Source of the DNA: Botryllus schlosseri
Lineage: Eukaryota
Reading direction: 5' to 3'
DNA: 64,000 nucleotides
Assembly (NCBI GenBank): GCA_051294905.1
Contig: CM119372.1
Span: 8,744,001 to 8,808,000, forward strand
Part shown: positions 14,609 to 39,143 of the stretch, one piece after another
Layout: every line of letters begins with the position of its first letter
Position numbering within the stretch: position 1 is the first letter of the stretch
The notes under the pieces: generated by a model
The model's input: only the letters and a program-made list of their open reading frames with translations
What the model was told of the DNA's origin: nothing
Database searches by the model: none
Made by a program: the position numbers and the translations under genes

Positions 14609-15152
14609 GTAATAACAATTTAACTATTTCATTGCATTTCAAATAGTATCAATCAAACCCTAACTGCGACATTGTTGTTCTATGGGCCGTGAGAAAGGAA
14701 AAAAATATAGGGCTATTATATTGAATGATATTTTTCTGAAATAGTCATTTGAAGCAAACAAGTCAGTAGTACTGTTGTATAATACAGCTTCGATATAATA
14801 TTTTGAACTCAAGATTCACGGCCGTGGTCTTTTCTTGGATCAGGGAGAGATTTTTATTGTCGAATTTCCCCTGGGCTACTAAGAATATTCTGAACACAGC
14901 CTTCACGCAATTTCTCTCAACTGCATAGTCGTATGAGTTGAAAATTAATTGAAGTATTTACTGTTGCTATCTAAATAGTTACTATCATGACAGAGGTGGG
15001 TGAGTCTAGCTATCGCTGGAATAAAAATGAAAATAGCACCTAGTAACCATATTGAGTTTCTGATAATTATGGATTCCGCAATCAGTATGATGAATTTTCT
15101 AACAATCAACAATTTCAGCATTGTCATGTTAGTTTAGTCATACTTGATAAGC

Positions 15153-18100
15153 ATGGACAGAAGGCATCGTTCTGGTGCTGCAAGTTCCAACTCTAACTGG
15201 AACAATAACAGCGGCGATAACAATTCAAAACCCCATGTTCCAAGTAAGCCGAACCGTCTCACCGGATTGAAAAACCCTACAACACCCACGCCATTCACAA
15301 AAGACATAGTCACTCCCAAAGGATGGATCCCGCAACAAAAGTTCACGTTCGGTCCAGCGGAAAGTAAGGATTCTCGAGGCTCTGAGGGGGAACAGTACGG
15401 ATCGAAAAATGCGGACGTTATGTCGACTCCAAAATGGAGATCGGTGCCAAAAGTTACCCAAAAGCAACGGTCTATAAATGACACTGGCTCTAATGTATTA
15501 CCTGGAAAATCTGACGCACAATCTACCGAGGGATCTACGAAAGACAACGAGGGCAAAAAACTGCGTGGCAGGACGCGATTTTCAGCTGTGTGAGTGTTCT
15601 GACTTCTACTAATCTTCATATAGTGTGTTTTGTATTGAGACTTTTCGTGTTTGCAGAAGTTCACAAATCACTAGACCAGTGGTTCTCAACTCAACCTTTT
15701 TGTCATCGCGGGCCCCTTTTGGACCGTGTCGGGACCCCCTCAAGATATAGTTCAAATGTAGCCTAATTATCGCGTGACCGTAATCTGTCTTGTACAAATA
15801 TGAAACATTACTGGCCGATTCTCTCACAATGGGTACTCTGATAGAGTATGCCCTACTCACTGGTCGATATATAATACTCTCATCATAGATCCAGTGCAAA
15901 AGACCGTTAGAAGGCGAGCAGCCGAGCACCAATATTAAACTCATACAAAAACAACAACAATTACGACAATGGCCATTCTGTTGATATACGAGTCCTGGAG
16001 TTGAGGCGAAATTGCCTTGTGATTTTCCTAATTTAAAAAATGACAAATTAGGTTATCAGCAATCATGTTGCAAATTTAGAGGTTTCGTGGACCCCTTGAA
16101 AATGCTTCACGGACACCGGTTGAGAACCACTGCACTAGACTATTTTGGTAAGAATTCGAATCTGGGATGTTGAGGGATTAAATTTCCAACTTAATATCAA
16201 TTGCTAGTACTACACCCCAGTCACTGTATCACATGCTGATTTTGTTTACACTTTACTGTTTTATTCTTACTATGGAACCATAGTCTCCAACAATCTGCTA
16301 GGCAATGCATAAAGATGGAGAGAAAGTTAATTTGGTCACTCCTAACATCTGTAAAGAAAGGTTTATTATACTCATTAGAACTTTGAAAACATTGTCAACC
16401 GGCAACCGCCATGTGGTTATGGCTTTCATTTCTGAATATTATTGGTATAGGTGCTGAACTAGACTTCTCCAGATTACATTCCATGTTATTTACTGGATAT
16501 TAGTTGAGACGGGTTATAAAAACACACCGAGAGGCAAGTGTTGTGTTTGATTGCTAGGGTCAATCTAATTCTCCATCAGTATCTTTCCGTGATCATAATA
16601 TTTAATTTGAGATAATGTTTGTTCAATCCTCCGATGGTCACCAATCGCGGCTAGCTATGTTTAACAAAGACCGGTCCATTATAGACCTGAACTGGTATGG
16701 CGGCTAATGTTTCATTATAGTGATTCAAGTAAGCATGCTATCATTTCAGTGAAGATGAAGATGTTCAAAGGAGTGTGGGATCACTGAAACGTATTTGGAA
16801 CGAAAAGATTAATGATCCCGATAAACAGCAAGGCCGAAATTTGAAAACTAGTAGCCTTGCTGCGAAAGATCGCCAAGGAACAGCAGATGGCAACCGTAAA
16901 GTACAGCCACCTGAAAATAAAGATTTGACGACCAATGGTACAGTTCATCGATCGACATCGTCATCCAGCGATGGATCGGTGCGGACTGCAAGCTTCAAAA
17001 GCAAAGAAGCGACTTGGCATTATGTCACTGCTAATCCGTCACCGAGTTTTTCCGCCGATGCCTTACCATCTAAGGTCGATCTGAATGAATCTCAGACGTT
17101 CTCGGCGCCTGGAAAGAAATTTGATCATACGATCCTCGCACCGAAACCGTTTCAATCTTCCTTCGACGAGTCTGGATCGGGGCAGCGACAACGGTCCAAC
17201 AACTCAACATTGATAAAATCGAAAAGCAGAAAATCTTCTTCCCGTGTCTCCAGGAAATCACGACAGCGCAAGCAGGAGATATACTCTGAGAGCGATTCCC
17301 AATCTAACTCAGGTGAGACTAACTGTTTTGTAAAAACTTTGTATCTCTTATGCTGCAGCTGTGGTAATGATGTAATTTTGTTGAATTTGCTTTTGAATTG
17401 CTGTCTGGAGCCATCAATTTTGTCAGGGTTGAGACAATATGCCCATTATAATTAAATTCCACATAAAAGGCTTGTAGTCTCGCAAGGGTAACTGTCTGGT
17501 AATAATTTCAAATATAATGTCCAATACGGTGTAAGTAAGTAGGCATGCATCAGGCACAAGCACCAACACCAGTGGAATGCTTTCTAGAAGTCGCAAATTT
17601 CTCGTAGAGCTAGTGAGATAACAGATAACTTACGGTTCTAAGATGTTTTTTGAATGTTTGGATGCAAAATTTTACGTCATTCGTACCATTTGATAGTGTG
17701 GTCTAGGATTAAGGCAGAAATTTTGTGTCGTTTCAAATCTCAACCGTGGTCGATCTCTAAGATACTTTATAGGCTTTTTGTCGAAGTTCTGAAACAGTAG
17801 GCTAATCGAAACTAAGATTTATTAAGAAATAAATACTGTCCAGATGAAAATACCGAAGAAGCAGAAATGAGAATTGCTCGCAAAAAAGGTACTCTGGTCA
17901 CGCGTTACGACAGTCGGGGCCGTAAGTACAAAATTGACCCACGAACTGGAGATATAATCAATGCAGATGACGACGAGGAAGAGAAAAGAAAATCGACCTC
18001 GCGCCCGGCATTCACCAGAATGGATGCGGTGTCGGTCGAAGAAAACTCGTCTGGCCGATCGTCCTCCAAACAAAAGACACCCAGTGGACCTGCCCCGGAA

Positions 18101-21100
18101 GAGGTCCCGCCTCCTCTTTTGCCGCGAGAGAAGGCCACTTCTCGCGCCGACAGTTCTGTTGTGCCGCCAAGTCGCGGACGCATGACCAAAAGCGTAACTC
18201 CGATCTCGATGTATTCTGGAAGGCTCTCGTACAATCCGCCATCGCCCGATTACTTTTCCGGCGGTCTCAGCCCGGAAACGGCCGTGCCGCCGCCGTTGCT
18301 GCCCCGAGGCCGGCCCGGGGACACAGAAATCGCGCCGGACTACACTCCGATGTCTGGTGCGGAAATGGAAATACCCATTAATGATTTTGGTAGCTCGGTT
18401 AGTTTGAATTCGTATCTGGATCAAAGTGCGTACGCGCCTATGCAGGGGAAGGATGATGGGAGGTCTGACTCGTTTGCTGATGAGGTTTGTGGTGATTTTA
18501 TATCTTTAGAATAGTATTAAACATTTTTAGTATCGTATATGCATCAAAAGTCTTCAAATACGTTCATAGCAAGTTGACCATCTCATGAATTGGTCGTTCA
18601 AGTTGGATTTCGGAATTCTATCCTTAGCCGTTATGTTGATGCATTTTTGTCATTGATTTGGTTTGCTTGAATTGATGTGATCAATTTTCTGCTATTGGTA
18701 AAAGTACGAATTTTTACAATGCTGATGCGCTCCCATGATATATTGCAATCAGCGGCCAGAGGGTTTTGAAGGCAATGCGTGGCCAATGATTGTTACGTTA
18801 TATTTCTCCATATTACTTACTGTATGGGAGAAACGGAGCGTATCTGATTTCACCTGTAACATTTTAACACCGGTACAGATTACCTAATCATATATTTTTA
18901 GGCTGATTCGTGTATAATACCAGATGAGTTGGAAATCCCCATAATGAATTACAGTAGGACTATTCCTTATCTGGCAAAGAATTGTAACGGTTAGGTTGAA
19001 CTTGTGATCTGTAATAGCCATGCAATAACAAAATAGACTTCCTCAAATTTTGGATTACGTTCCTATTGAGATACAAGTATCAGTGATAGGCCTATATTTT
19101 GTGTTTAATTTTAGACTTATCATCATCACTTCGAGTTCATTCTATTTACTTAGCCTTAGATAAAAGGGAATGGGGGAAAAACTGTATGCATATAGTCCCA
19201 CTCTGTTTGAGTTGTAAACATGTGAAGCATTGGCCGTTTCAAGTCTCATTTCTTGATTGTGGAATTTCAGAACGATACATTTACTTACTCAGCGGCTGTC
19301 AACCCGGCTCCAATTAATTATCGCAGGTCAATACGAGAATATCACGAGATCGATCCTGAATTGGAAGGTCAGTTTTCTCTACTGGTTTTCTGCACATTTT
19401 ATACCGACATAACTCTAGTCACTACTGAGCATTGTTGATGGTTCTGAATTAACGGTGTCAGCTACTGATGTCACCGTATCATTGAACATTGAACGCTGAT
19501 TCATATATGCTCGACTTTTTCAAGATATTCATTCATCTTAATTTGTGTATTCGCAATCAAGTCTCCTCGATTAACAGATTTAGAAAAAAAATAGTTTCTA
19601 GGATACAGTAATCAATGCAGTTTTGTGGATTGTTTGTCCGCTTAAAGGAGCTATAGCAGATAGAGAATTTTTGGTTTAAAGGTTTTCATGATTGTAGAAT
19701 GTCACATTACAGAACGATGTTCAATTTATTTTGCAGCGGCTGTGTGGCAGAAATCACCTACAGGAAACGCACCACCTCCTCCACACTCTCCCCCTCCGTC
19801 ATTGGCAAAAAATTCTGTGCCCGACCCCTATACCACCGCTCACGCGCCAGCGGTACCCAATATTCCCGAGTCCCCGCCGCCACTGCCACCCATGAATCAC
19901 AGGAAGTTGAATTACATCGACGTAGAGTTCAAATCTCAGCCGCCGGGTCAGTCCGGGGATGGTAGAAAATCAGCCAAGACGAACTATAGTCAGGTCGTCA
20001 TGGGAAAAAGGTCCAAGGACGACACGTAAGATTTATTTGAGAAAAATTTCGGTATCGCTTGAAATTTGTATTAAAACTGTTTTCAAGTTTTCTTATCTGG
20101 TGCAGATTAACATTGAAAATTCACATTAGAATTGAAAAAATATCAATCAAAAATCGTGAATTTTTTGTAGTTTGAAGTTTTGACCCGACTAATTTTCTGA
20201 AATTCCAAACAGTTCTGCTGCAACACTTTGATGATTAACTGGAAACGCTTTCTCTCTAATGATTATTGTGCAGTGGAATTCTGATTCAAGCACCATCTTT
20301 ATACTTGCTGTGATGGTTTCGTGACGTAGACAGTGCAAAAGTATTCCTTGTTTTTGGTTTCCTGACCTTACAGACTGCCTACATAAAATAATGTAAATTG
20401 CAGTAATTATTGTGTATCTTGAGAAGCGTGCCTCGATAAAATACTATCAAATGTAGTTACGTGTGGCTGGAATCATTAGTACACAGGTTTGATTGGGTGA
20501 TGTTTTTGACATAAACATGTGGAGGTCATATACCTATTCTATTTAAAGGACTGCTTCTGTGTACAATGTCCAGAAAATATTGTTATCTCAGTATAGTTCT
20601 ATATATGCACAAGTCTAACATCACCTTGTCTTCCTAATAGTGAAGTAAAGCGAGGGAAAACCTTAAAAGAGAAACTGATGGCCATCGTATCTTCAAACAA
20701 GAATCCAGATGGATATACCAGCGAAGGCGATGCAATCACCTCCAAGGTACGCCAAACGCTACCATGTTTCATTCGTTATACACTTGTAAGCCATGCAATC
20801 ATATGTGAGGAACCGGTATTGCATCACACTGCTCGCACGAATCCAACCCTTCTTGTACCGTTCTGATGACCCTACCGTGATAGATTTATATCCTGTCGCA
20901 AGTGTAGGCAGCTCCAGGGCATGAGCGCGCTGATGCACTTGAACGAATCTTGTGCACTTGCCCAAGAATTATCATCTGAGGATGTAGTCTGTTATTATGT
21001 GGCAATGACGATTTGATTTGGATTCGTTTTTTGAGGTGAATGTGTGTCAGCTGAAATTGTTTTTAAAATGTGAATATGTAGTCTACTGCCAGTACTCGCT

Positions 21101-24100
21101 AGTTGTGCTTTACGGTGTATTTTGATACAAATGGTTACTTCCTTGGAAAGTGATGATTGCTTGTGGTTGCAAGAGTTGGGGTCAGCCTTTTGTGTATAGA
21201 TTTTGAAGCTGCGCTAAATTCGCTCGGATTGTGGAGTCAATTGATACAAATTCGACCATTTGGTGGAAAATAATGATTCACAAATGTCCTATTTCGTTCT
21301 CTTGTTTGCTTGAGTCACTCTAGTGCACAATTTTCTGTTTATTTCTCCTTACTATCGAGTGAAATAATTGTATGTTATTTTATTACGCTGGCTGCTGTGA
21401 ATGCTCGATTCAGTTCATTTGAACTTGAAGATAAGCTCGTGTCGCAACGGCGACGAATTATTTTCCTCAGCACTGTCTCAGTCAGTAGGCCTACCAACTC
21501 TAATTCAAGTACCAAAGCGCTTGTACTTACATATGTCTTAGACACTGTTGGTGACTGTGTTATAGGAGAAAATTATGCCACTGATCACGTATCTTGACTA
21601 AAGTACTTGTGTTTGTGGGTTTTATAGAAAATACGGAAAACTAATAGAAATATACGTAATGAATTGATGAGAACTGTTGCAACCATGGGTTGTTGCAACC
21701 TTGGCAAGCGTGTCAGGAGAGCTGGCAACGTTCTGTTAAGGAGAATTATTTTCGGAAGGCAACAACAGGTCTGTTGACTAAGTCGAGACTAAGTTGAATG
21801 TATTACCTCCTTGATGCCAACATAATATCCTTTGTCACATTCGCTAAATACCATTTTTGCGCAAATTCCATCTGCTACATTATATATGTAGACATCGAAA
21901 TCGACAAACAGATAGGAAAGGATGGTATTTGTTAATGGATACATTTACGGTGTATTAGAACAAATGGTGATTTTTTTAATGATATTTTGTTACCTTAATC
22001 ATCACTTATAAGTGGCAGTTAGTATTATGCCCTGTGATACATTTGCAGCTAATGTGTGATTAGCGTGTTCCCGTAGGTTTAATACTGTGTCCTTCGTCTG
22101 GTGTTGTGTTCTTTCTTTTGTATATTGTGACTTGCCACATTCCTTGTGTTCGGTATCAATGATATATTCTAATGTAACTATCAACTAAAACTTTTTTTGC
22201 GTCGGAACTAGGTCTCTTCTTGTAAAATATTTCTTGCTCATATCACCGACACGGTGCTGGGTTGCAAAACTCATTTGAATGACAAATTAGTCTAGTGATG
22301 AATAATCACATATGTTCACAACTGAGCGTCACTGTCCCGTGTAGTATCGGTATGATTCCTCGATTGCTTGCAACCGTGCAATGGTGTCATATATCCTATG
22401 ATTTTGCGAATGGTATGTTTCGATTACTGCCACGGCATGGGACTTGATGTCTCCGCGAGTTCCTTTTGTTGCTTTTGTGTGAGATCACAATCGCAAACAC
22501 TGAATCAATGGAATTCTTGAGGTGTTACACTATCAAAGATTTTGAATGACCATACCCTGTACCTTGTAAATATGTGTTACCCATGGCTAAATGTGATCGC
22601 AGTGGTATTATCAGTTCAGTTTAGGGGATGTTTTTATGACTTCCATCCCAGTCAGACTTCTTGAGAAGGGAATGGCTTTGTCTACTTCCCTGTTCGAAAT
22701 ACATGTCTGCTATGTTTTGCACATCATATCAAAATCCATTTGAACCATTTTTGAATTTGAAACCGGCTTTATTGCACGGATGCAATCTACTATTTCAAGA
22801 CACAAGCGGCGTTATTTTTACAGCACAACGACGACAGAACGACCGATTTCTCCAAGGAACGCAATAAACTGAAGCGTATGAGCAATAGAATTTTGAGGAA
22901 GAAGAAAATGAAGTCTCAGAATCGAGTGAGTCTGTCGCAACGTTCGTTCGCAATGCGTCGTGACGATTGCGACGTTATGTCACAGAGTCGAGACTCCAGC
23001 GAATTCGAGTTGTCGCAAACGGAAACGAGCGGCGAAAACGTTAGCGTCGGCATTTACGGATCCGCCACAAATCTCTCGTCGACTTCCTCGGAAAGTTCAA
23101 GGTAGGACCAGCGAATTCTCTTATTTTTTTGATGAGTTTCGTTTTCAAATGCGTGCGCCCCCAGAATTGCTACTCAGGTCTAACTAGAAGTAACGGCTTG
23201 AATTTTTACTCAATTAGAAGTAGAAGTAGTAATTTCCATGACATGTACAATAAAAACTGAGAGGGCTGGAAAGAACTCAAGCAAGTACTCTCAAAAAGTA
23301 GATTTGATTGTCGATTTGCACGCTTCCAGCTAATATATTAGTTAATTGTAGGTAGCTACTTTCGAAATGGTAAGACGTGTCTTCGCGACTATTGCAAAAT
23401 AACTTATGACGCTTCAAATAGGTACAACCTTGAAAAATATATCGAGTTATACCTGGGTGCACGGGCTATTTCACGAGACTCTTATGACATTTTCGCTAGT
23501 AAAAGCAATGCAAACTTATACCAAATCCACTGTCTACTTTTCAATTTCATCTATATGAATTCGCTGTTGGTGTTCTGCGACATCTAAATAATTTATATTG
23601 TAAGTCATGCTAGACGCGAAGCTTGTGGAAAGTGTTGGTGGGCGTGCAGCATCGCAGCATGATGGAGGCCTAATGTCGCAATTCTCAGTCGCTAAATGCA
23701 ACGAGTTATTTTTTCGCATGTGGTTGGCACCGGCATCGTTACTGCTGTATAAATGGTATCAATCGATCTGCTTGACGAAGACGTTTCGGGGTGGTACTCA
23801 ATTGATATGCATTTACATGCAATTAAGCCGAGTAAGCTGACTGCAATTAAACTGACCAGCGTACCTAAAGGGATTTGCCGATTAAGAATTGAAGGAAGTA
23901 TGGATTAACCATCGTTGTTTGCATTGTGTATGAAAATCTGCATCGCTGTAGAGCAGTGGCCGGGAACCTTTTTCGTCTGAAGAGCCATGTTAGCCCTGTA
24001 TTTTCCATTTTAACTCCCAAAGAGTCATACATGGCAATCAACTGTTACGTCACTATTGAGAATTCGTGACATGGTAGTACTAATTCGAACTCACTATACA

Positions 24101-27100
24101 TGGGAAACTCGTAACAGCATCAGTTTATTAATATTTTCATCGTTTCAAAACACCACGAAACTGCGATACCATGTAAAATAGGAAGATGTCGAAACAACCT
24201 GGAGTAGTCGTTGAAATCGTATGTTACTAATCATCCTATGATAGCGCAATTCATCGTAAATGGCTCAGAATTAATATTAACCAGGGCAAGTTTTTGTTGC
24301 AGTCAAATCCGTGGAAAGTTGCATTTCTTTTTCACAAAAGTTGCACCAAAAGGCCACATTTTGGTCGGTTGATTAAAAAAAAAAGGTCAACTTCCCAGAT
24401 CCACATCCTCCATTGGTTGACTAAGAAAAAAGGTCAACTTTCCGGCTTAGCTCCTGAAATACCCGTTAGAGCGTTACTTCAGTGCTGATTTACGGTATTT
24501 CAGTCGAATAATCAAGCAATCTATTTAGATATACTGCCAAATATTTCCAGTAAAAAGTTGGTTGCATGAAAAATTGAAAAAACTTGCAAAGTTGTAAAAA
24601 GTTGCATGAAAAAAATGGAAAAAAAGTTGCACTATAAGATTCCTTCAAACTGCTTGAAACAGCATTCTCCATAACTTCCGAGTCTTTAGGAAGCTGCCGG
24701 AAGCTGTAAAAATAGTTGCGAAAGTTGCAAAAACTTGCCATAATAATAACTGTTATAAATCTAATATAACTGTAGCACTGATTCCAAAAATAAATACTGA
24801 TCGACTTCTCAATTTGGCAGTAACATAAACGTTGCACTACACGCCTACATTTTAAGTGCATGCAGTACTAGGAAGCTACTTATCAATTTGGACGTGGATA
24901 GCGAATCGCTGTTTGTGATTTGGATTTGTAATTGGAATGTCACTTCCAAGGCAGTTCATTTCTCGGCGAAGATCAGGAAGACAATGTGTATGCGTTGTAA
25001 ATTGCTATTCTGCTATTCTCATGATCAACCATCGTATGGTGCTATCCAAGATTACGCAGTGTGCGATGCCGGGTACATCGAATTTGCTGGCGCTGCAGCA
25101 ACTCAAATTTGAGGATTTTGTAAAGGAGCCCGAGCCCTTAACCCTGGATACACCATTGCCTTGACCTCTCAAATTTAGTTTATGCTGCCACGTGAAAAAT
25201 TATTCTGGCCGTTGAGAAAATTTACCGACGAATTGCTGCAATTTCGATAAAATTAAGTACAAAATTGAAAACATGTCAAAGAGCCATATCTTATACGCAA
25301 GAGAGCCATATATGCCTCCCGAGCCATAGGTTCCCGACCACTGCTGTAGAGCATACTCGATACATATTGAAAACGATGTAATAACTACTTAATAACTAAT
25401 TGGAACGTTGACTCACTGACTTGAAACTGCCAGCATCAAACTGATTTATCATTTTCTATGACATAGTCTTCATCATCAAAGCGTGGATTGCTGGCACATT
25501 AGTATTTGACATGACATAAATGTTTGTTTGCCCCGTTTAATAAGCGCCATTGTGTACCTTGTATCTTGTGAGTTCATTCCAATGCTTTGAATCGCCTTTA
25601 TTCGTTTGTGACTCGAAAATACTATAAATGGCTTGTCGCTGTCTTCACGGATCACTGGATAATGATGCACTTGGTAATATGATCTCACTACATCAATTCT
25701 GTGATGCACGTGTGATGGTGCAGACCTCCAGTTCCACATGTATTTTGACATTTTTCCACATTATGTGTTTTGCTTGCATGGATCGCATGCTGTTATTTGG
25801 CTGTTAATCCTGTTGAAATTACAATCTTGTAAAAGTTTAGAGAAAGAAATCCTCAGAGTTTTGTTTTCTGCGTGCTTGATTAGCCTATATGTCGATAAGG
25901 TTTGCTATCTATGGCCTTAGTGACCTTTTGTGTTTGTCAATGGGCAAACTGGAATATGTTGGCTACTTCTGAACTTGTTTGCCGCAATTTAACCTGTTCT
26001 GGTGAAAGTGGTCTTGTCTTAAACATGAAACCGATAAAATTTGAGGCTTTATATAAGAACCGTGCGGATAATTTTGAGCGTGAATCGGATCTTCGTGTTG
26101 TAAGAACTGCTTTGAATTAAGCGAGGGTTGATATTGAGGACAAGATAACAAACCTGCCCTGAAATCTTACTCTTGAAGGTAAAAATGTTGTTCCCATCAT
26201 GTCAAATTTATAGTATGTTGTGATTATATCCCCCCATTCTTTATTGCAGAAGCTTGTCGCATCAAACCTCGGGTCAAAGCGGAGGTTCGGGAGACGGTCA
26301 GGTACGGACACGTGTATTGTCGCAGCTACTTTATGCCTGCTATTCGCCGATTTTCAATGCCTGGCGTAACGGTGAGTTGTTGTTAGGTCATGAGAGGACC
26401 AAACGCGGACCGGAGACAGAGTCACGAGCCCACGGCCACCCAATTGCCTCCGAGGCTCAGTCAGAAATCGCGCAGCGAAGCACACCTCGACGCCACGATG
26501 AGCCCGGCAAGGCAAACGGATTACTCTTTTGCTGCTTCGAATCCGACGGCGAACATCAGTGGACGAAAAAGCAGTCATGATGTAACAGGTGTGTCTACGA
26601 ATACCATCTATTTTGCTGGTTATAATAGATAGCATCAAACATGAAAAGTTATTTATTCCGTTTACCGTTGCGCATGAGACGCTTGTTTCGGGCAGTTAAT
26701 GTGTATACGAGCACCGTTCATGATACATGACAACTTTCAAAGAGTGTAAATTCACACTCGTGGATACTGCAAGCTGATGCGAGCTGCTGAAATTTAACGG
26801 TTTCAAGAGAAGTAGCCTACTCCTTACCGCCGGATTATTATTCATCTAACATGGGAAAATCTTACAAACTTGAAAAGAGCTTGGCGGCTGTGCGGTTTAA
26901 AACGCTAACGATGACATCTTGTGTCATCAATATTTCGAATGCGCCACGGTTACCCCGATGTCTGGTTACCAGTTTATTCCGCATGTTGAATTCGGCACTT
27001 GGCAAATATAGCGTTATAAATGTAATATAACTACTATTAATATGAAAACGATGCATTCATATTTGTATTTATAAATTCGAAAATGAAGGTATCGCTGAAT

Positions 27101-30100
27101 GTGAGCGTGAATTGTGATGTACGCAAGTTGGTGATGTTTTCACTTTCGGTGTATTTAATAATGTATTCGGGGTATGGGGTAGGTTAGGATTAGGATCAGA
27201 GGCCGCCAAGTGCCGAATTCACCAAGCGCCAGCCAAATTCTCCCTCAATGCAGAATTCTCTGGTAACCCAATGCATACCCCTACTTTCATCGCTAGCGTT
27301 TGAGTCTCGCTAAACTGCAGATACATTTTCCAGGTTCCCCCGCTTTCAACGCGCCTCGCGTCGACAGTCACTTGTACAAAAAGCAAGAGAGACCGGACCG
27401 TTTACCCGCGTCCACGCGTCCCACATCCGACCCGCCCGGCATGGACTACCTGGACATGGAAGGCGCCGAAGTCGAGGTGGTCCGCAAGCCTGAAAACGCT
27501 ATTTCCTACCGCGGTCACCCTTCCCTCGACGTGATCCGGGACAACGACGTCGCCGAAAAGTTAAGCCCCAATTTTCCCTCCGGTCCACCGCCTCTGCCAC
27601 CCGGCAGTATGCGGTCGCCCCTGCCTGGCCCAGTCGCACCACCCGATCCTTTGAGAGATACGAAGCCGGACCGGTTTAAGAAGCGGCCTCGTTCGCAAGG
27701 TCCCAGTTACACAGCGGCAGAGAATATTCGGTCCAACGTGGATGAGGTTCCGGACTGCGGACATGATCCGATCTATGACGTAGTGCCTAGTAAGTAAACC
27801 AGGTCTATTGTTATCACTGAATAAGTAGTTTTTATGGTTCTGACGAATGTTTCTTAGAAGTTATTAACCTGGTGAAGCCTTGCAAATCTGAAGCCAAATT
27901 TTTGCCTACCCACGAAAATAAAAATCCGCCATCTTGCACACTATCTAGTACAGAGGCTCTCAACCTTATGTTTTTGTGGATCTTATTTGGACTGTCATGG
28001 ACCCTGCGGATCCCTCCGAAGTTTTACTTCAAATTTAACTCAATTTCTGTCTTGTGCAAATATCAACTGCAGGCTAGTGATAAACAGCAACAAAATGACT
28101 TCTTGAAATTAACATCATACTATTGAGTATTGAGGTAGAAATTTGATAGGCTTTCATTATTTCAAAACGAATTCTGCAACTGTGTCTTGAAAATTCGCCC
28201 CTTTGGTTTGATATGAACGACGGCTGCCGAAAAATGTCAAACGCCCCTGACGCAGTGACACGGATCTTTATCTTGCTGCCAATTTTTTTACCCAGTTGCA
28301 GCTGGTCGAGCGGTCGTTACTGTCAACCAACGTATTTTGCAGATGATCAAAAGCCGTCGACAAATTTAGTTGTGCCGATATCGCCTGCAGCAAGATCCAA
28401 GCTTTTGGATTCCGAGCCGTTGTACCAGGTGAAATTCAGTTGATGGGGATTGCGCGTGCTACCCGGTCGTTTCTATCGTCAACCATTTGAGAGACATGAT
28501 GATTGATCATTTTTTCTCATCGATCTGTGAATACGTGCGGTTTAAATGTGGGAAATATGACTGTGACCGCAGCGCTCTTTGTGACATTTTACTAAATCTT
28601 TGTCCGATTGATATTTATTTGCTGTAGTATTCTTCAGCCGTATCAGTTGCATTTGCTTACGCTTTACTCGCATACCGTATATATCTATGTTCATGAAGAA
28701 AATAATGAATCAAAGTTGAAGGGCAGTTATAAAATGGAAACTTGAGATTTTGATTCACATTATATACCGAAATAATTTTGAATCCTAAATTTTTAGCATG
28801 TAAGCCAGGGTTAGGTATGGCTTTAAAGACGTTGGTGCTTTGCTATTTCGTTCTTCATTTCCAAGTTTTTTTGATTTCAGGAATACCGAAGGAGAACGCT
28901 CTCTCATGCTTCGATGAGAGTGAGACGCAACCAGTCTACAAAACGGACCGGCGCCTCGGTAAAAGATGACAACGGTAAGAACATTTTTTTAGCATACGAT
29001 ACAGACGTGAAACTTGATATTTTCTGGCTACCGTATCAGTCAAATCGTAGCGGATTCCCAGTTTTAATGGCTCGGCGCGCTGCACTTTGCCTTGGTGATC
29101 TGTAAAACTTATGTGACAATGCTAACCGTGTGAACAAGCGCTATTACGCTGCCTGAATTGCGCAGATATGTAAAATATGTTGATCATATCTCACGCATTT
29201 GGTCTGCGACTTCAAAGAATCTGTGATATGCATTGCAAGAAAGTATCTGGCTAGAGATCGGGTATGCCAGCGTCTGACAGAGACATGCCTTCCGTAATTG
29301 GGAGTGTGCGGTTTGTTTTTGACTGAGAAGGCAGCTGTGGTTTTATCATGCACACTGCGCTATCTTGCCTCAACGCCAACTGGAATCTTGAAATGGTTGC
29401 AGTTGTGGCTGGGCTCAATGACTTGAATCGAATAGCGAGAGATTATTTTTCGGGTACTATACGTCCTCTAGCCAAGGACAGCTGTATTATCAACGAGAAT
29501 TGTAGTTTCGATGCTTTTTCCTTGACGTGGAAGCCTTGAAACCTCGATTGGTCATATCGCTGCATACGAAACATAAAGTACAAAGCTTCGCACTTTAGTG
29601 GGAATAACAAATCTGTGAGGTCATGATTAACCCATATCATTCTCATCAAGTCCAATGAAATAGGCATGGTTGGAAAAAATATCAAATTATATTTATGTGA
29701 CGTAGAACTGGCTTTATTTTGTTTGTGGTCATATAAAAGGTGCATATTTGAACTATCCACATCATTCATACTATAAAGATACCATAATGAGTTGCAGTAC
29801 GACGTTAAGAATTTTCTGCGCTTTGTCCAAGTTAATATTCGCTTATATCTCGGCAATCCGACTGCATGGCCTTTTCCATATCTGCCTTTGTGTCGGCATG
29901 TTCTTTTTATCTCGGCAGCTCCTGCGGAGCAAAACGACAACGGCTGGCAGAGCGATTTGATGACGGACGACGCAGGGACCACTACTTTGTGGAGGGAAGT
30001 GAAAGAAGTCATGGAGAGAGGAGTGGGGGAGAATCTCAGTAATGAAGAGATGAAGTTGCAACAGGTGGGTGTGTTATTTTTCGACTCTGCTCGCGGCTCG

Positions 30101-33100
30101 AAATAACTAGGCTCTGTATCGCTATAACTACCTATATATTCGAAGATTGCTGTTATTTGTAAGTGACATAGGTCATTTCGAGTTAGTCGCAAAGATGCAT
30201 GTTCCAATTTCAATAGTAGCCACCTCTGACACATTGCTAAATGTACAAATATACTTTTTTACGCTGTTTACTTAGTGCTACCTTTCAATTTCTACTTCCA
30301 CTTGAAGTAATTTCAACATGGTTTGGAAATTGCTAGTTTTATTTGTAATTAAGTAGAAAATGATATAGTTACATATACTTTAGAAGCGACGATACTTTGA
30401 CCACCTCTTCGTAAAAACTGCGAATTATTTCTCTCGGTTCAATACCATATACATTGTACAAGCATTACATTCAGCTTGATTATAACCCCGTGCCATTTGC
30501 GATTAGCGTTTCACAAACCTGGTTTACTTTCGCAGGCACAATTCGAAGTGGTGACTTCTCAAGCGTCCTACATGCGAAGTCTGAATATTTTGATCGACCA
30601 TTTCATGAACGATGCGGAAATGCAGGACCCCACCGTTTTGTCCAAGAAACAGAAGAAGGATCTTTTTTCCAATATTGTGGACGTTCGCAAAATCGAGCAA
30701 GCGTAAGAATGGGTTTAGTGTGTTGAGATAATGTTGCAAGCTACTCTATTAAATACAAGAGCATCGACTCTCGTATGGCTTAAGCTCGTCGTTCTGCAGT
30801 CGGGACTTACATGTAGGGGACTCTTGATGCACCTCATTAGTTGCAAGTGACTGCTCTACCAGAGCACTTTCATTGGTATAATGATATTCATTCGACTACT
30901 ATGGATATAGAGGTCTATGAGCCTATGTGCAATTCCATTGCATTGATTGCGGATTAGAAAAAATTTAAATTTGCATTGCCGAGGACGTCGTGTTCATGCG
31001 TAGCAAAATTATATATTTTCAAACTTCACCCGTACTTTGAAAATTTTCAGTTCTAAATCAGTTATACAAAAAACTTGTATTTTGTATATTGACTCAATGC
31101 ATGGCAACGCGTCCACCTGTAGCACCGGAAGATAATTCACATTTTTCATCAGCTCTTAACAGATTATCTGACATTTATATTTGAGTGCGAGTCACTCCTT
31201 ATTACATGCAACCTTTATTCTGGTTTACTTTTTATTTTTACTAGACCTAGTGTACAGTCGTGTAGTGTAACAATGAAGTATTGCTTTGTACGGTGCTCTT
31301 TAAATAATCATTATTATTATCATTGTATATATGTGTTCATGATGGATGATAGATCAGTCTATGATATCTCTGAACAAATAAGAAATTGAACGACCTTTCT
31401 TTGTATTGTCTTAGGTTCCTTCAAGAGATCGAACAGCACTTTTGGTCCGAGCTGCGCCTAACCGACATCGCAAAGATCACCGCCAAGTACGCCACCGCCG
31501 ATTTCGAAGTGTACGTACGTTACGTCCAAAATCAAGTCTATCAGGATCGAATTTTAACAGATTTGCAGTACGTTGTTTTGTTAGGCAAACTGTCACCATT
31601 ATCTACAAATCTATTTCTTTCGCACAGACGAAATAACGACCGTTTCGCCATCGAGTTGGGGCGTCTCGAGTCGTCGCCATCGTGCAACAAGCTGCCGCTA
31701 TTGTCCTTTCTGCTATTGCCGATGCAACGGGTGACCCGGTTGCCTCTTCTGATTTCAGCCATCGTGAACCAGGCCGACGCGGCCGGCGATACGGACGCGC
31801 GCAACTCGGCAAAAGACGCATTGGTCGTCGTCAATAAGGTACTGTTTGTAGTGACCTTTCAAGGAAATTATAGATGAACCTGCTTGATAGCTTTCCAGCA
31901 GGGTTGTAATGGCTTGAGTCTCAACTTTACGTTGACTCGATCAAGTCGTATGACTGACACATTCTGTATCACTTATCCAAGTACTTGTATATCAGGTCCG
32001 ATAGCCCCCAGAAACTGTCTTGAGTCTGTTTGAATAAACATCTTTAGAGTGTGAAGAATGAGTATATTATGAATCAGAGGTCTTCGATATCACCCCAGAC
32101 TCACAAAAGTCGGTTGAACCTGACTTGAACTCGATGCTGAACAGTAAACACTACGACTTGGAGTCGGACTTGACTTGGTGGTGAATTGACAATGACTCGA
32201 CTGGACTCCAGTCAAAACTACAAAAGTCAAATTGACTTGTGACTCGGAACCTTGTGACTTGGTTACAACCATGCTTTTTTAAGATTTTATTAACTAAAAT
32301 TTGGCTAAAATCAACTACAAGTAAGACGTGCTTTTCCAAGCACAGACAGAATCCACAAAACGAAGTAAACTAATTACAGTAATCAGCATCAAGTGTCTTA
32401 AGCAATCACCACACTGCGTGAATTGAGATTTCGGGATATTTGTCGCTAAGCATGGATCACTCCGACTATAATATTTTCGGTGTCTACGTGTTTGAAAGTA
32501 CCATATGATCCCAAATGAAGCCAGGATGAAAATGTAGGGGCGAATGATTTTCAACGATGTCTTGATGTCATTGATCCATTGTGATGCAGTAAAACCATTA
32601 AAGTTAACAATGCCCATGTCTAGAATTGGGCTTTTTTGAAGGCGCCTTCGGTCCCCCGGCTTTACCAAAACACAATTGAATACATCAACAAAACTCTTCT
32701 GGTGCCGGATTAGGTGCATGGTGCAGCTAGCCAGGGTTGTAATGACTCGAGTCATGACTCGACTCGAGTCAGACTTGTGTCACAATTTTCTGATGACTCG
32801 ACTTGACTCGAGTCATTTTCTCAAAATACGGAAATGACTCGACTTGACTCGAGTCAAAACTATAAAAGTGAGATTGACTTGTGACTTGGAGCCTTGTGAC
32901 TTGGTGACGACCCTGCAGCTAGCTTTCCTTTTGACTCTATATTTTTTACATTTTCATTGTCAGCTTGTGAAAAAATGCAACGAGGGAGCCCGTAAAATGC
33001 AGCAGGTCGAGCAGCTCGCGGAAATCGCGAAAGACTTGAAATTTGCGAGCAACGTCAAGACCTACGCGCTCGTGTCGCACTCCAGGCTCGTCATGTCTCG

Positions 33101-36100
33101 AGATTGCAAATTTTCGATTTTTTTCAACCATTTTTTTACCATTTGCAAACAGGTCGTTGGTCAAAAAGGGCGAGATGAACGCGACGATAATCGTGGAGAA
33201 CAGGAAACCGAAATCCATGAAACTCTACCTGCTGTTGTTCACCGACGTGCTGCTGCTTGCGAAAAAGAAAACGTTAGTGTTAGCCTGTGGCATGCGTTTG
33301 CGCAAAAGGTTTCGAAATTTCCAGGATGCTATCCGCCAAAAATATGTTTGGTTGTATGCCAAGTTCTACCGTACTCGAGCGAATCCGTAATGCGCTGCGG
33401 TATCGTGATTCCAAATATTAAAAAGTTATTTCTATCCCGGCGTGATGTCCCGTTGTTTATGGCGGTCAAGAAAAATTGAATAGAAAAGAATATTCAAAAT
33501 TTCTTTATTCGTAGGACACATGTGAAAGCGACATGCCCAGAAAATAATAATTTCATCTTTTTGTTGTATCTGCAAGTCGACAACAGAGGTGGCTGAGACT
33601 GACAGATCTGTAACATGTTCCCAGTTAATTTTACATGTGACAGTTACTTTCTTTTAGCGGAAATGCCCATGCCCTAGCATATTCCGCTTCCACATCACTA
33701 AATCCGTTTTGTGTATTCCGCTACCCCGACTAATATTTTCAGAATCTCGAGTATCGTCAGCGATAACACATTGTCTTACAGCATGCAGAGGTAGGATACG
33801 TGTTGTAACCGCAAGTGACGCCCGACAAGCTGGTCCCAGGCAACAACTAGTTTGAGATATCCGCCTCGTTTGTAGATTTCTCGATTCCGTTTCTGGCGCG
33901 AAATACGAAGTTATCGACTGGGCGAAGCGCGCGATGCTGTTTGTGAACGAAAGGGCAGTTTCGGAAAGCGAAATCTTCCTCGTACTTATGGAGAATTGTA
34001 ACTCGAAACGAGTCGAGCTAACTCTGTCGCCCATGTCCATGTGAGTACCGACTGGAACGGCGGCAGACCAGGTGCAGCCAAGCTTTGAGTCTTTGGCGCT
34101 AGACTACGGTTGCTGCGTTTCAGAGAAATTACGCTATACGAGTAGTCGTGTACTGGAGAAGGCAATAATGAATTTGTTTTTGTGGCCCATTTTTGTTTGT
34201 TAGTTGAGAAAGCTTAGTCTGTTTCGCTCAAAGCTTATCACTCTTTCTTATGATCGTAGTGTTACCTTTTAACGCTTGAGTGTGCATGTGTGCAACCGGC
34301 AGCCGCCACCACGATGCATCATCAGTGGTAAAATGAGATTCTAGTTTTGCATTTCAACTACGGTAATCTCAAGCGGGCGAAATGCAGGGACAAAAACATT
34401 TAGATTATTCATATGTGTGATTACTTTGATACGGTAATAAAAATTTTGAAAAAATGTTGTAGTCCGACATCAAATTTTATCCCGTCATCACGTCTTGATG
34501 AGATGCCACTTGTCTTGCCACTAGCAGAAAACCTATGTGCGACCCTCGGCTTCACCGCATCATTGTTGAAACAGAGATCCGTTTGTCTAAATCAGTGGTT
34601 CCCAACGTGGGCGACTTGGCGGTCTAGGGGGGCGAAAATAACGAAGGGGGCGAAAACGGGCGAAAAGAATGAAGGGGGTGATAGGGGGCGATGGCACGTT
34701 AAAACAGCTATAGTGGAGTTGGGACCGAAACTACCGCACCCCGAACCCCCCAAGTGTGGGTGAGGGGCCCGAAATCGAAGGAAGCCCAAAATTATTTCGT
34801 GAATTAACATGAATGATAGAGTAATTTTTAGAAATTCATGCGACTTTTTCAAAAATTTTTCGCGCTGCACGCGATTTAATGCTTTCATGTATCTTGATGT
34901 TGGGGTCCCCGTCACCCAACAAAAATACGCATGATTTATGGAAATGGGAGACTTCGGCGTCGGCCATTACTGCGCCACGACGCACCAAGACATATGAAGC
35001 TAGAGGCCATGTAACATGCGACTCCGAGAAGTGTGCCAGAACGATCAGCAGCGAGAAGACCTTGGCCGAAAAGGAATGCCCTTGTGCTGACCGAAAACTT
35101 CGATATGTATACATATATGTTTAATTGTCCATAGGCGCCTCAATGGCTGGCGTCGAATGTTCCTGTCCTGGCGACCTTAACCCTACAGGACAAATGCCAT
35201 CCCGCAAGGAAAAAATTATTTGCCAGTAAAGAAATACCGATATGAAATCATGTGCGTCTTTTAGTTTGGTACGTTTTGACGATTTCCATATCTTCTGACA
35301 TAGTAGATATAGGAGGTCACGAAATAGCATCATGTAAAGTAGTCAATATAACAACGATTCCGCCTGAAGATGTTTAATTATTATGTAGGGGACCTACCTT
35401 TTCCAACATACCACATCGACCATATTGACCGATTCAAACATGAATTATGTAAATTTGTCGCGCTGCGCGCGTTTAGGCGAAATACGGTGACTCACCAAAC
35501 AGTACATGAAATAGGGTATAGCTGATATGAAGCAACAAAAAGCCCACTGGCTGAGGGGGGTCCGGGATTTGGTTTATCACCCCATGGGGCCAAAGACCAA
35601 CGTTTTTTTCGGGGGGGGGCTGACGAAGTGCTGTTTTTCGGTTCCCAATATTTGGGGGGCGATGATCGGTGTGGAGCTTCAAAAGGGGGCGATGAGTCGA
35701 AAAAGGTTGGGAACCGCTGGCCTAAATGGTTGCACAGCCCGGGCAACATCTATATTTGCTGTAGTAAACAGAACACCGTCCATAGTGTACTTACGAGTTA
35801 ATATAATGTCGCAATTCGCAATTTATTGAAATCAAATTCTTTTCAGTAACGAACTGTCTCGGTGGACCGACGCTTTGAGTCCGAAGCACGCCAGCGAGTT
35901 CGAGGACAGCATTTACGAGTCCTGGGGTAGGTCGCGACAAATATTTTTCAACTCCCATTGCCGGGCAATGTATCGCTCGTGTTTTTGCAGACTGCCCGCA
36001 GTATCAATGTGTCGAGCCTTACGACGCAATGCAGCCTGATGAACTGACTCTCGACGTCGGAGATATTATGAGAGTGTTGAGGAAGACCAGGGATGGTATG

Positions 36101-39100
36101 TGTAGGAATATACGCGATATTTTTGTAGTACTGTCCGTGTCCGTATATGAATTCCGATATATTACAATTTGACGGACAGATGAAACTCATGACCTTTTTA
36201 TTTAGTTGACACACACAGTTCATGTAGTGTGATCTGCAGGGCTGTAATGACTCTAGTCGCTATTCAAATGCGTAAAATGACTCAACTCGAGTCAATTTTT
36301 GTATTGACTCGACTTGTACTCGAGTCATTGTGCATGACTCGAACCAAGTCATGTGACTCGAGACTAGGACGACCTAAACCAGTGATTCCCAACCGCGGCC
36401 CGCAGCTAGCCTTCTTGCGGCCCTCACAAAATATTAAGAAATCGAGTATTGACAAAAAATAAAATATTATATTTTTAAAATGCACATACTTGGCTTGAAG
36501 TCTGGAGTTTTTAATCGGGATTGCAGAAAAGTTGTGAGTAGACCGCTAACGTTACGTCGCTGCTGTTTCAATGCAATGTGCCCTAACTTTCCAGTTGAAC
36601 GAGCAGTAGCTACAGATCATATAGGTATAGACATGACCATAACTGCGGCATGCCACACCCTCCAATCGGGGGGGGGGGGACACCTCAGCTAGCTCTACCG
36701 ATAAATCTGATTACGTGAGCAGAGAGGACAAGAAATTGATAGCAATATGTATGAAATTCCCGATCTTATTTACCGATTTTATCATAAGTTATCGAAAATT
36801 TCGCGCTGGCTCACTTAACGGTACAGCTAATTTCGTGGTAAAAGCGAACAAGGTGATAGGGATACGGTTTTCAACCTATGGGAGCCCAAGACCAAAGTTT
36901 TTTGGGGGGAGGGGGGCTCACGAAGTGCTCTTTCGTTCCTGCCAACGGATATACGCCCGGAGATGTTTAATTATTATTGAGGGGTCCTACTTTTTCAAAC
37001 ACACCTCCCTCGGCTCTACCTGTAAAACTGATTACGTGAGCAGAGAGAGGATAAAAATGGATAGCAATATATATGCGATTCCCCATCATATTGACCGATT
37101 CAATTATGAATTACAGAAAATTTCCGCGCTTGGCGCGTCCAGGCAATAAAAGCTAACTCACTAAACGGCCCCGAAAGCAGCATAATTGGTAGTCCTACAG
37201 CTCACGACCCAAGCGTCTGAATAATTTGAAAGCTACTGTCGCACTGATTCCAAAAATACGAATTGAAATCTCGTCAGGGCAATAAAACTGCTCCGGAATA
37301 GCCAACAAAGTCGATTGTTCTGAACAGTGGGAGCGCAGCAACACAATTACCATAACAATTAACCCTTACGAGGTGGGGCCATATTTTGCAGAATTGACCT
37401 TCACTTTTCAAATTCTCACCGTTACCCCACCAGGACTTGAAAATCTGGGCCGTTCCAGTTTAAAAGTGGGCGGAGTATAGCCCTATACCGATTCCACTCT
37501 TGATCGACACCCCATGACATGCCTGAGGTTTTTTAATAAGTTTAAATAAACAAGCTTTTCCCCCAAAAAAATCTCTCTCAATTTTCAAGACTGACCCTCA
37601 GGATGGCGTCAGAGAGAGGAATATGATGCTTCAGTGCGTAGCCACTGTTGCCTGGTTTCAAACAAGCCGTCAACCATGGTTGCAAGCCGCGCGGTTCGTC
37701 AGATATCGAAAAATGGGAAATACATATAAAATTTAAAAATGGGCGTGGTCAGTGAGTGTTCATCAAGGTCAAGTTCATGATCAAGACTCAATCGGCCCCT
37801 ACAGTCCGGTTTATGGCATAAAACAACGCGATATGCTTTCTTTTCTCATATCCAACCATTTGCAGGCATAGTAAACCGCTTTATGACTCATATGCCGACT
37901 GAATTTGCATTTGAACTTGACCTAGATCTTGAAATTCACTGAAGCGTGACAAAAATTTACAAATCCCCCTCAGAAAACTCTCCAGAAAACGTTTTGATGT
38001 TTGAAACGGTGAAAATTTACACAGAAACCCGTACATGTCGACTTCTGATGTTCTGGCAGATTTTCCGACAATATTTCCCACTCGGAAAATATCCGGAAGT
38101 TTTAGGTGATAGCCATATTTTATTTTATTTTTAATTTTTTGTTTATTTTTACAAACCAAAATTTTTGAGTAAGGTACCAAATACATCGGAAATGTCTCAG
38201 CTTTTCAAAAAACGTAGTACCCGATGTCTAGGGCATGTCAACATGGAGAAATCGGTGTCGGAGACATGCCATATCATATATGATACGCCCACCTCGTAAG
38301 GGTTAATCGCCAATGGCTTCGAGCGATTGATCGGAACAATGCCAATTTTCATATTTTGATGACTATTTCGGGTCCGTTTCATTGCCCTAGTATTAGTGCG
38401 GCCCCGACCGTACTCTGAAATTCTAAATTTGGCCCCGACACCGAAAAAGGTTGGGAACCATTGGCCTAAACAGACACTTCATTGTAACTTCGAAGAATAG
38501 TGAAGTCACCACATTATTGGTATTTCGTATATCAGTTCTGATACTTAGACTGTTAGGACTGAGGAAAAATACGATATTATGAATGCGAGTCATTCTATAT
38601 CACTCGAGCAGAGTTGAAGAAGTGGGTTGAAGCGGATTAAATTCAACACTGAACAGCGAACATAATTACTTGGACTCGGACTCGGCCCTCTACTAGCTGA
38701 CTTGACTCGGTGGTGAATTGAAAATGGCTCGACTTGACTCGAGTCAATCAAAACTATAAAAGTAAGATTGACTTGACTTGGTTACAACCCTGTTGACCTC
38801 GCAGGGCTGCAACTTTGAAAGGTGCACCAATCCAAAAATGGTTGGAAGTGCGCCTGCCCTAAAAAAATAAAATTTGGCTCAATTTCGAGCAGTAGAATCC
38901 GAGAAAAAACAAATTGTAAGTTCGAGCTATTAATAATATTTATTGTGGTAAGTCGAGTTCCATGCCATCTTTAGAATGCCGATTGCGTTTTCAGACTGGC
39001 TCGAAGGCGAACGGCTCCGGGACAACGAGAGTGGCTGGTTCCCCGCCAAAAACTGCGAGGAGATCGACGACGAGCACGTCCGCGCGCGCAATCTGCGCAA

Positions 39101-39143
39101 CCTCTACCGAATCATACCGCAAGGCGCCGAAGCGGCCACGTGA
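15153..39143 (+). CDS. Ephexin-family Rho guanine nucleotide exchange factor (DH-PH-SH3; ARHGEF16/ARHGEF26/NGEF-like), 22 exons, ~1572 aa
   Basis: Exons 15153-15589, 16750-17312, 17844-18484, 19271-19367, 19737-20025, 20641-20746, 22824-23101, 26250-26301, 26387-26588, 27334-27789, 28343-28428, 28881-28974, 29919-30064, 30536-30702, 31415-31567, 31628-31838, 32964-33085, 33153-33272, 33876-34040, 35847-35926, 35991-36095, 38995-39143. All phases are compatible (4719 nt). Motifs: [66 protein letters not shown]3 QPDELTL..GWFP, RARNLR. The 3' half is more secure than the joining of exons 1-10. Confidence 0.88.
15677..16132. mobile_element. intronic hAT (Charlie-like) MITE
   Basis: TIRs cagtggttctcaac/gttgagaaccactg; perfect TSD cactagac. 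Confidence 0.85.
23954..25343. mobile_element. intronic hAT element with a nested MITE (24282-24742)
   Basis: TIRs cagtggccgggaacc/ggttcccgaccactg; perfect TSD ctgtagag. Confidence 0.85.
32732..32915. mobile_element. 184-bp internally deleted GACTCGAGTC-family MITE
   Basis: TIRs cagggttg/cgaccctg; perfect TSD cagctagc at 32724-32731 and 32916-32923. Confidence 0.85.
34593..35719. mobile_element. intronic hAT (Charlie-like) element
   Basis: TIRs cagtggttcccaac/gttgggaaccgctg; TSD gtctaaat/gcctaaat. Confidence 0.8.
36380..38463. mobile_element. hAT element nested in a GACTCGAGTC MITE (36237-38792)
   Basis: TIRs cagtgattcccaacc/ggttgggaaccattg; TSD acctaaac/gcctaaac. Confidence 0.8.
37363..38302. 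mobile_element. non-autonomous piggyBac-type element
   Basis: Perfect 15-bp TIRs cccttacgaggtggg/cccacctcgtaaggg with TTAA on both sides. Confidence 0.9.

Follow-up and report, generated by a model that had tools for sequence, protein, structure and literature searches.

The human RhoGEF ARHGEF5 (Ephexin3, TIM) carries its own Src- and PI3K-binding region beside the DH-PH-SH3 core of an ephexin. This region (residues 583-902) is needed for tumour promotion and the protein is called a PI3K scaffold (PMC5047960); it binds the SH3 domain of c-Src (PMC3492796), co-purifies with GRB2 (PMC5599542) and has a phosphotyrosine, pY1100, which responds to EGF and depends on SHP2 (PMC8024022). The present analysis concerns an ephexin gene of the ascidian Botryllus schlosseri which lies in a window of 64,000 nucleotides (nt) of contig CM119372.1 (positions 8,744,001 to 8,808,000; all coordinates below are those of the window), and whose long N-terminus is predicted to dock PI3K and SHP2.

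Other features of the ephexin family are the LYQ sequence, a conserved phosphorylation motif (PMC4954681), and a helix N-terminal to the DH domain, which is autoinhibitory in Ephexin1 and 3 (PMC6406967). In trees of DH domains, the tunicate members generally sit at the base of the mammalian groups (PMC5499878). Among docking proteins, the Gab/DOS group is defined by an N-terminal PH domain and the lack of a catalytic domain (PMC2747914), and IRS, FRS2 and Dok by a PTB domain with a PH domain or a myristoylation site (PMC7260276).

The gene and its ephexin core

The favoured reading, drawn from sequence comparison and held with moderate confidence, is that the gene encodes an ascidian ephexin RhoGEF in which one chain includes a probably disordered N-terminus whose conserved motifs would make it a docking platform for phosphotyrosine-dependent partners. 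Its coding sequence is spread over 23 exons on the + strand (15153-39143) which, joined by script, give one open frame of 1552 residues, arranged as a 1044-residue N-terminus followed by the LYQ motif, DH, PH and SH3. An in-frame stop lies 5 codons upstream of the ATG, and the start codon aligns with the orthologue Met. Intron borders are GT-AG in 21 of 22 cases and GC-AG in one (33086-33152). The first-pass annotation had proposed a phase-compatible chain of ten exons before EPLYQ and a total of 22; the chain stands, with the count corrected to 11 by a 60-nt intron (22926-22985) spliced out in contigs of runs X1 and X4, and the total to 23.

Four sequencing runs were mapped over 14500-34400: X1 and X4 are contig runs, presumed to be RNA, with spliced contigs, and X22 and X24 are raw runs. 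Orthologues are numbered P0001-P0005, P0002 being from Styela. The features are as follows, with the predicted partners of motifs stated as such.

15153..15589, +, exon 1 with the ATG; covered by an X1 contig (14998-15589)
15228-15251, +, KPHVPSKP (PxxPxK), conserved, exon 1; from the orthologue alignment
16750..17312, +, exon 2, Ser-rich; joint to exon 3 in X1 and X4 contigs
17844..18484, +, exon 3, two PPPLLPR (PxxxPR) and the YxxM pair Y500/Y530, predicted PI3K p85 sites; Y500 kept in 5/5 and Y530 in 4/5 orthologues
18107-18127, +, first PPPLLPR, exon 3
18287-18307, +, second PPPLLPR, exon 3
18338-18352, +, DYTPM (Y500, YxxM), exon 3
18428-18442, +, AYAPM (Y530, YxxM), exon 3
19271..19367, +, exon 4, with a predicted Src-family SH2 site whose Tyr is kept in 5/5 orthologues; partner proposed by likeness to the middle-T pYEEI peptide
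19337-19351, +, EYHEI (Y571), exon 4
19737..20025, +, exon 5, PPPLPPM and the Y639/Y663 pair, 24 residues apart, a predicted SHP2 bisphosphotyrosine activation motif
19907-19930, +, LNYIDVEF (Y639), exon 5
19979-19999, +, TNYSQVV (Y663), exon 5
20641..20746, +, exon 6; contig joints at both ends
22824..22925, +, exon 7, best-conserved N-terminal island by percentile, basic segment 22848-22883
22926..22985, +, in-frame, stop-free GT-AG intron of 60 nt; joint 22925>22986 in X1 and X4, absent in orthologue proteins
22986..23101, +, exon 8; contig joints and joined frame
26250..26301, +, exon 9; contig joints and joined frame
26387..26588, +, exon 10; contig joints and joined frame
27334..27789, +, exon 11, DYLDM, Pro-rich runs and IYDVV, a predicted Nck SH2 site; joined frame and orthologue alignment
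27444-27458, +, DYLDM (YxxM), exon 11
27771-27785, +, IYDVV (Y1016), exon 11
28343..28974, +, exons 12 (28343-28428) and 13 (28881-28974), ephexin LYQ motif and predicted autoinhibitory helix; from the Phallusia orthologue model
29919..33085, +, exons 14-18, DH (RhoGEF) domain and start of PH; Pfam
33086-33152, +, GC-AG intron of 67 nt; joint (listed as 33082>33150) in both contig runs
33153..35926, +, exons 19-21, PH domain; weak SOS1_NGEF_PH match in orthologues and fold of the orthologue model
35991..39143, +, exons 22 (35991-36095) and 23 (38995-39143), SH3, C-terminal helix and stop; aligned to orthologues, with Pfam SH3_1 there

Judged by its sequence, the product is a Dbl RhoGEF of the ephexin (NGEF) subfamily and resembles ephexins more than it does the rest of the Dbl family. 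The DH domain matches Pfam PF00621 (RhoGEF) at E 1.9e-16 on a window open reading frame (31374-31874) and at E 1e-29 to 4.7e-32 in the orthologues, P0001 giving 4.7e-32. A PH domain appears to follow directly, since two orthologues give below-cutoff SOS1_NGEF_PH matches and the model of the Phallusia protein shows a beta-rich domain with high confidence. Exons 22-23 align to the C-terminal SH3 domains of the orthologues (Pfam SH3_1, E 4e-11 to 3e-13). EPLYQ lies N-terminal to DH at 28414-28428, EY being encoded by the next exon; across 70 aligned rows its Tyr and Gln are conserved in 90% or more, and a helix starting at this Tyr is predicted in the Phallusia model. This model (mean predicted local distance difference test, pLDDT, 84) finds Ephexin4 at Foldseek ranks 1-9, aligned over DH-PH-SH3, and the best PDB match of P0001 is likewise Ephexin4 (259 bits, E 8e-76; next family 61 bits).

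In a quick tree, built with no non-ephexin outgroup and with 2 of 39 rows dropped for want of an anchor, the gene groups with Styela, Clavelina, Ciona and Phallusia at support 100, Styela clava being its closest named relative; this placement points to a stolidobranch ascidian as the probable source. The best vertebrate scores belong to ARHGEF26 and ARHGEF16. Ephexin4 (ARHGEF16) and SGEF (ARHGEF26), the best vertebrate and PDB matches to the catalytic part at about 35-39% identity, share the LYQ motif; their N-termini, by contrast, are about 200-370 residues long, with YxxM in 0 of 7 sampled. Since the quick tree places the tunicate gene inside neither clade, RhoG specificity is not transferable to it.

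Conservation of the N-terminal motifs

All of the motifs listed by the first-pass annotation were recovered at their expected places in the joined exon translation, within a region which is Ser/Pro-rich as described (14% Ser, 10% Pro and 25 Tyr over the 1044 residues before EPLYQ) and has no recognisable domain, no Pfam family being matched by three window exons or three orthologue N-termini. In 20,000 shuffles of the N-terminus, at least three YxxM motifs arose in 0.9% and a strict SHP2-type pair in 0.16%.

Mean identity to the five orthologues is 0.31 in the N-terminus as against 0.68 in DH-PH-SH3. The nine named motifs reach 0.62 versus 0.31 for random N-terminal windows (0 of 20,000 draws as high), with the caveat that aligners anchor on motifs. 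The seven named tyrosines are kept in 4.0 of 5 orthologues and the remaining 18 tyrosines in 1.5 of 5 (p 0.0008), and a Tyr-matched test gave 0 of 20,000 draws, the orthologues being related and the p-values thus not phylogenetically independent. The comparison is a fair one because the motifs were chosen earlier, without sight of the orthologues. Conservation percentiles are 99 for EYHEI, 98 for DYTPM and for LNYIDV, 94 for the second PPPLLPR, 93 for TNYSQV and 92 for IYDVV, falling to 82 for AYAPM, 69 for the first PPPLLPR and 48 for DYLDM. The motifs are therefore conserved islands, as had been anticipated, when taken as a set, but not in the case of DYLDM or of the first PPPLLPR, which is kept in 2 of 5 orthologues only. 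The Met at +3 of the YxxM sites is kept in 5 of 5 (Y500) and 4 of 5 (Y530) orthologues. The SHP2-type pair recurs in 4 of 5 as LNYI[DE]V[ED] and TNY[ST]xV, with a spacing of 23-26 residues and the N-SH2 type before the C-SH2 type.

Islands beyond the named motifs are equally conserved. The foremost is the basic segment of exon 7, which lies at the 99.8th percentile, is kept even in P0005, has no Pfam match (22848-22925) and takes the form of a short helix when the orthologue is modelled. A membrane-binding helix, an import signal and a kinase site are all conceivable roles for this segment. Allele differences (13 rows used, of 40 listed) are synonymous in 8 of 9 cases in exons 3 and 5 and in 1 of 4 in exon 1. 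The N-terminus is probably disordered: AlphaFold modelling of an orthologue N-terminal core, from only 4 sequences, gave a mean pLDDT of 51 and a predicted template modelling score of 0.13, with two short helices.

Predicted partners

Docking of PI3K and SHP2 by the N-terminus is a well-matched prediction when the sites are set beside the ligands and consensus patterns of PMC3514216 and PMC10231330. YIDVEF fits the PTPN11_N (N-SH2) pattern at every position, and the Y639 site shares its LNYI start with FRS2 Y436 and IRS-1 Y1179, both ligands of the SHP2 N-SH2 domain (PMC3514216); TNYSQV and its four orthologous sites fit the SHP2 C-SH2 consensus (PMC10231330). With an N-SH2-type and a C-SH2-type site 23-26 residues apart on a probably flexible linker, the pair matches by sequence the make-up of a SHP2 bisphosphotyrosine activation motif. 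DYTPM resembles IRS-1 Y612, listed as a PI3K ligand, and IYDVV resembles the Nck1 ligands pY-[D/E]-[E/L]-[P/V] and the HPK1 pYDDV peptide; the middle-T peptide is listed as a Src ligand (PMC3514216).

PPPLLPR had been read as a PxxPxR ligand of Grb2-type SH3 domains. It fails that pattern and fits PxxxPR, a CIN85 SH3 ligand (PMC2833206), and agrees with Grb2 SH3 binding only through the minimal PxxxR motif quoted in PMC2747914. YxN sites for the Grb2 SH2 domain number 0 in the N-terminus where 1.4 are expected. The Grb2 link is thus weak, and Grb2 was ruled out as the main partner. DYLDM, no better conserved than the background, was ruled out as a third p85 site. PPPLLPR also lacks the RxxK core.

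Evidence for a single chain

The product is likely to be made as a single chain of 1552 residues. Joints listed in the X1 and X4 contigs cover 13 of the 19 introns in range (introns 2, 5-10, 13, 15-19), those of exons 22-23 falling outside the mapped stretch. By arithmetic, rather than by listed joints, one contig has exactly the length of exons 4 to 10 (784/784 nt) and another nearly that of exons 10 to 14 (984/987 nt), which would bridge EPLYQ into the exon preceding DH. Exon 3, used as a query, retrieved 2 proteins among 2141 candidates, P0001 and the Styela P0002, both with RhoGEF and SH3 domains. P0001 (1578 residues, on a single contig of 4896 nt) and the Styela clava protein (1636 residues) both hold the motifs and DH; full-length orthologues were found on single contigs of 4896 and 3983 nt, and all 10 members of a Clavelina cluster carry motifs and DH on one chain. 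The possibility that the 5' exons form a separate transcript, set beforehand as refuting the hybrid, is not borne out, since contigs and orthologues both connect them with the DH exons.

Weighing the alternatives

A number of observations count against the docking platform. Besides the relatedness of the orthologues and the few sequences behind the disorder prediction, P0005, the most distant match in the tunicate clade, is without the SHP2 pair and the second YxxM. Introns 1, 3, 4, 11, 12 and 14 are not among the joints listed; none of the listed contigs covers it from end to end, and a contig is not proof of one molecule. Run X22 has a few, partly duplicated fragments on exons 1-2 (15153-17312) and zero depth over exons 3-11, from 6% of the run and with a mapping tool whose depth dips are not to be taken as a finding, and the database entries from Phallusia (541 residues) and Ciona (452 residues) lack the N-terminus. 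As for partners, the first class of N-SH2 ligands given in PMC10231330 does not include an Ile at +1, as Y639 has, and peptides of this kind also bind other SH2 domains, IRS-1 Y1179 having been recognised on arrays by Abl1, PLCg, Rasa1, Shb-family and Yes (PMC3514216). SGEF is not regulated at LYQ, so that phosphorylation there is not universal (PMC4954681).

The alternative which survives best, though an unlikely one, is that the motifs are under selection for other partners, either as unphosphorylated YxxPhi sorting signals for adaptor complexes or as SH2 sites for RasGAP, Shb-family, PLCg or Csk, so that the N-terminus would determine where the GEF is placed or transported, with no link to PI3K or SHP2. 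The YxxPhi consensus, too, is matched by each of the seven named Tyr motifs. In array data (PMC3514216), the IRS-1 Y1179 and FRS2 Y436 peptides were recognised by Rasa1_N, Shb, Shd, She and PLCg_C, and a CIN85 ligand (PMC2833206) would suit a trafficking role. Against this reading stand the retention of the residues upstream of the Tyr and of the acid at +4 in 4 of 5 orthologues, the stable spacing and order of the pair, and the conserved Met at +3 of both YxxM sites.

More improbable is that the locus mainly makes two separate products, one a short TIM-like GEF that starts internally and the other a 5' product that is short or lacks the GEF, with the full hybrid as a minor form. The X22 fragments would agree with this, as would the Ciona and Phallusia entries, which start near LYQ or DH, and the alternative transcripts of ARHGEF5/TIM, known from a reference title. 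Those entries may be partial gene models or short isoforms. Against separate products stand the chain of spliced contigs with similar depth (about 11-17) over exons 2-17 in two runs, the orthologues full-length on single contigs, and the retention of both parts throughout the Clavelina cluster. Raw runs X22 and X24 gave no joints among those listed, X24 being essentially without exon depth. Finally, a neutral low-complexity linker with chance motif matches, which the low overall identity and the background-level DYLDM and first PPPLLPR would allow, is largely refuted, and very improbable, given the pooled and Tyr-matched tests, the synonymous allele differences listed in exons 3 and 5 and the rarity of the strict pair in shuffles.

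Relation to docking proteins and to other ephexins

The proposed docking-platform ephexin resembles Gab/DOS, IRS and FRS2 in combining YxxM with a tandem SHP2-type motif in a probably disordered region, and its LNYI.V site is near identical to FRS2 Y436 and IRS-1 Y1179. It differs in being an enzyme without an N-terminal PH domain, PTB domain or myristoylation signal, and no homology was found by the profile search given below. It falls outside Gab/DOS, as the orthologue N-termini have no Pfam match and DH is present, and outside IRS/FRS2/Dok, as there is no PTB match and residue 2 is an Asp where myristoylation would call for Gly. Searched as a profile against 1.84 billion representatives, the N-terminal core returned 8 matches (the two inputs and six short or partial proteins aligning to the same motifs), with no docking-protein homologue and no vertebrate-like full-length protein among them. 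Capture of an IRS, Gab or FRS2 segment is accordingly unsupported, and the cassette seems to be confined to tunicates and to have arisen by convergence. Gab-like and FRS proteins are present in Ciona as well, so the tunicate ephexin is not a replacement for them.

The first-pass annotation presented such an adaptor-GEF arrangement as unfamiliar among ephexins. This is not supported: ARHGEF5 is described as a PI3K scaffold (PMC5047960), and of 116 anchored ephexins (from 120 listed matches, in an insect-rich search limited to 867-2762 residues and so biased to long proteins) 54 have an N-terminus of at least 1000 residues and 71 of at least 800, with a median of 982. The adaptor-GEF design in general is already known and the tunicate gene is a variant of it. 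It differs from ARHGEF5 in that no report of direct SHP2 docking by ARHGEF5 through a tandem motif was found in the literature searched; no vertebrate ARHGEF5 occurs by name among 240 matches, and the N-termini are likened by description only.

The invertebrate ephexins, including Drosophila Exn and those of coral, mollusc and amphioxus, likewise have long N-termini rich in SH3 ligands and Y[DE]x[VILP]. In a sample of 47 hand-picked matches and the window protein, 3 of them without an anchor, PxxxPR exceeded shuffles, which overstate proline-motif enrichment, in cnidarians (15 vs 2.1) and spiralians (29 vs 2.7), Y[DE]x[VILP] did so in arthropods (112 vs 17), and YxxM in tunicates (14 vs 2.8) and spiralians (8 vs 2.6), with arthropods near chance (10 vs 6.9) and YxxM absent in the cnidarian and nematode samples. 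N-termini of coral, mollusc, insect and amphioxus ephexins (P0006-P0120) are enriched in SH3 ligands and Nck/Src-type Tyr motifs. As such N-termini occur across invertebrate ephexins, a scaffold N-terminus would be a habit of the family, and the motif counts suggest that a scaffold role is ancestral to it.

The strict SHP2-type pair sets the tunicate proteins apart. The pattern was built from PMC3514216 and PMC10231330 after the motif had been seen, with the last hydrophobic position dropped and a spacing of 15-55, and was scanned over 221 ephexins (a further 20, of 241 in all, were set aside because they had no anchor or too short an N-terminus; the set is without vertebrate ARHGEF5, 15 and 19). 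It occurs in 5 of the 221, namely the window protein and four of the tunicate clade, where 0.67 are expected, and in none of the 216 others. None of the papers listed on ascidian ephexins deals with this gene, as judged by title or opening of the abstract, a search on Ciona ephexin RhoGEFs and one on the motifs found no paper, and ephexin is nowhere mentioned in the literature matches listed for ephexin/SHP2/p85/YxxM. The tunicate cassette of YxxM pair and SHP2 pair appears to be undescribed in the literature searched.

Neighbouring genes and repeats

Upstream of the ephexin gene lie an intronless EBP2 rRNA-processing gene (6347-7298, +; Pfam Ebp2, E 1e-58) and a multi-exon SET-domain gene (about 8672-10649, +; Pfam SET, E 2e-12 on the last exon), which resembles SET8/KMT5A. 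Downstream, 20 of the longer open reading frames (43229-63818) have no Pfam match at E 0.001. Very high depth marks high-copy intron repeats at about 23960-25350, 32130-32920, 34590-35720 and 36230-36400; the intron repeats include a family rich in GACTCGAGTC and inverted-end elements resembling miniature transposons.

Proposed mechanism and implications

By analogy, the docking-platform ephexin likely works like human ARHGEF5 with a probable SHP2 arm added. A receptor or Src-family kinase would phosphorylate the N-terminal tyrosines, whereupon pY500 and pY530 would bind PI3K p85, SHP2 would be activated by docking of its N-SH2 domain on pY639 and its C-SH2 domain on pY663, pY571 would hold a Src-family kinase and pY1016 would bind Nck, with PxxxPR recruiting CIN85/CD2AP-type SH3 domains. 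Once the LYQ helix is phosphorylated, the DH domain would be released for GTP loading on a Rho-family GTPase (RhoA, RhoG, Cdc42 or Rac). As there is no N-terminal PH, PTB or myristoyl anchor, recruitment would rely on the protein's own PH and SH3 domains, receptor binding or the conserved basic segment.

A more far-reaching proposal is tentative, and rather doubtful as a whole: that the tunicate ephexin, independently of IRS, Gab and FRS2, came to possess every site of a receptor substrate (a p85 pair, a Src site, the SHP2 tandem and a Nck site), and that it would set off Rho activation along with PI3K and SHP2/ERK signalling, timing itself through removal by SHP2 of its p85-site and LYQ phosphotyrosines. 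SHP2 reportedly removes p85-site phosphotyrosines on Gab1. If true, this would be a GEF that is itself a direct allosteric activator of SHP2, and it would add a node to the Eph/FGF-ERK patterning of ascidians.

The surprise is limited by the adaptor-GEF design being known in general. The scaffold role of ARHGEF5 may reflect an old trait of the ephexin family, as the motif-rich N-termini of coral, mollusc, insect and amphioxus suggest. If the predicted binding is real, the gene would offer a clear example of convergence, with short motifs in an unrelated protein coming to resemble IRS and FRS2 sequences, and PI3K, SHP2 and Rho would all be linked to tyrosine-kinase receptors through one ascidian protein. 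In ascidians receptor-kinase/ERK signalling drives most early fate decisions and gene duplicates are few, so that the predicted coupling should be easy to test there.

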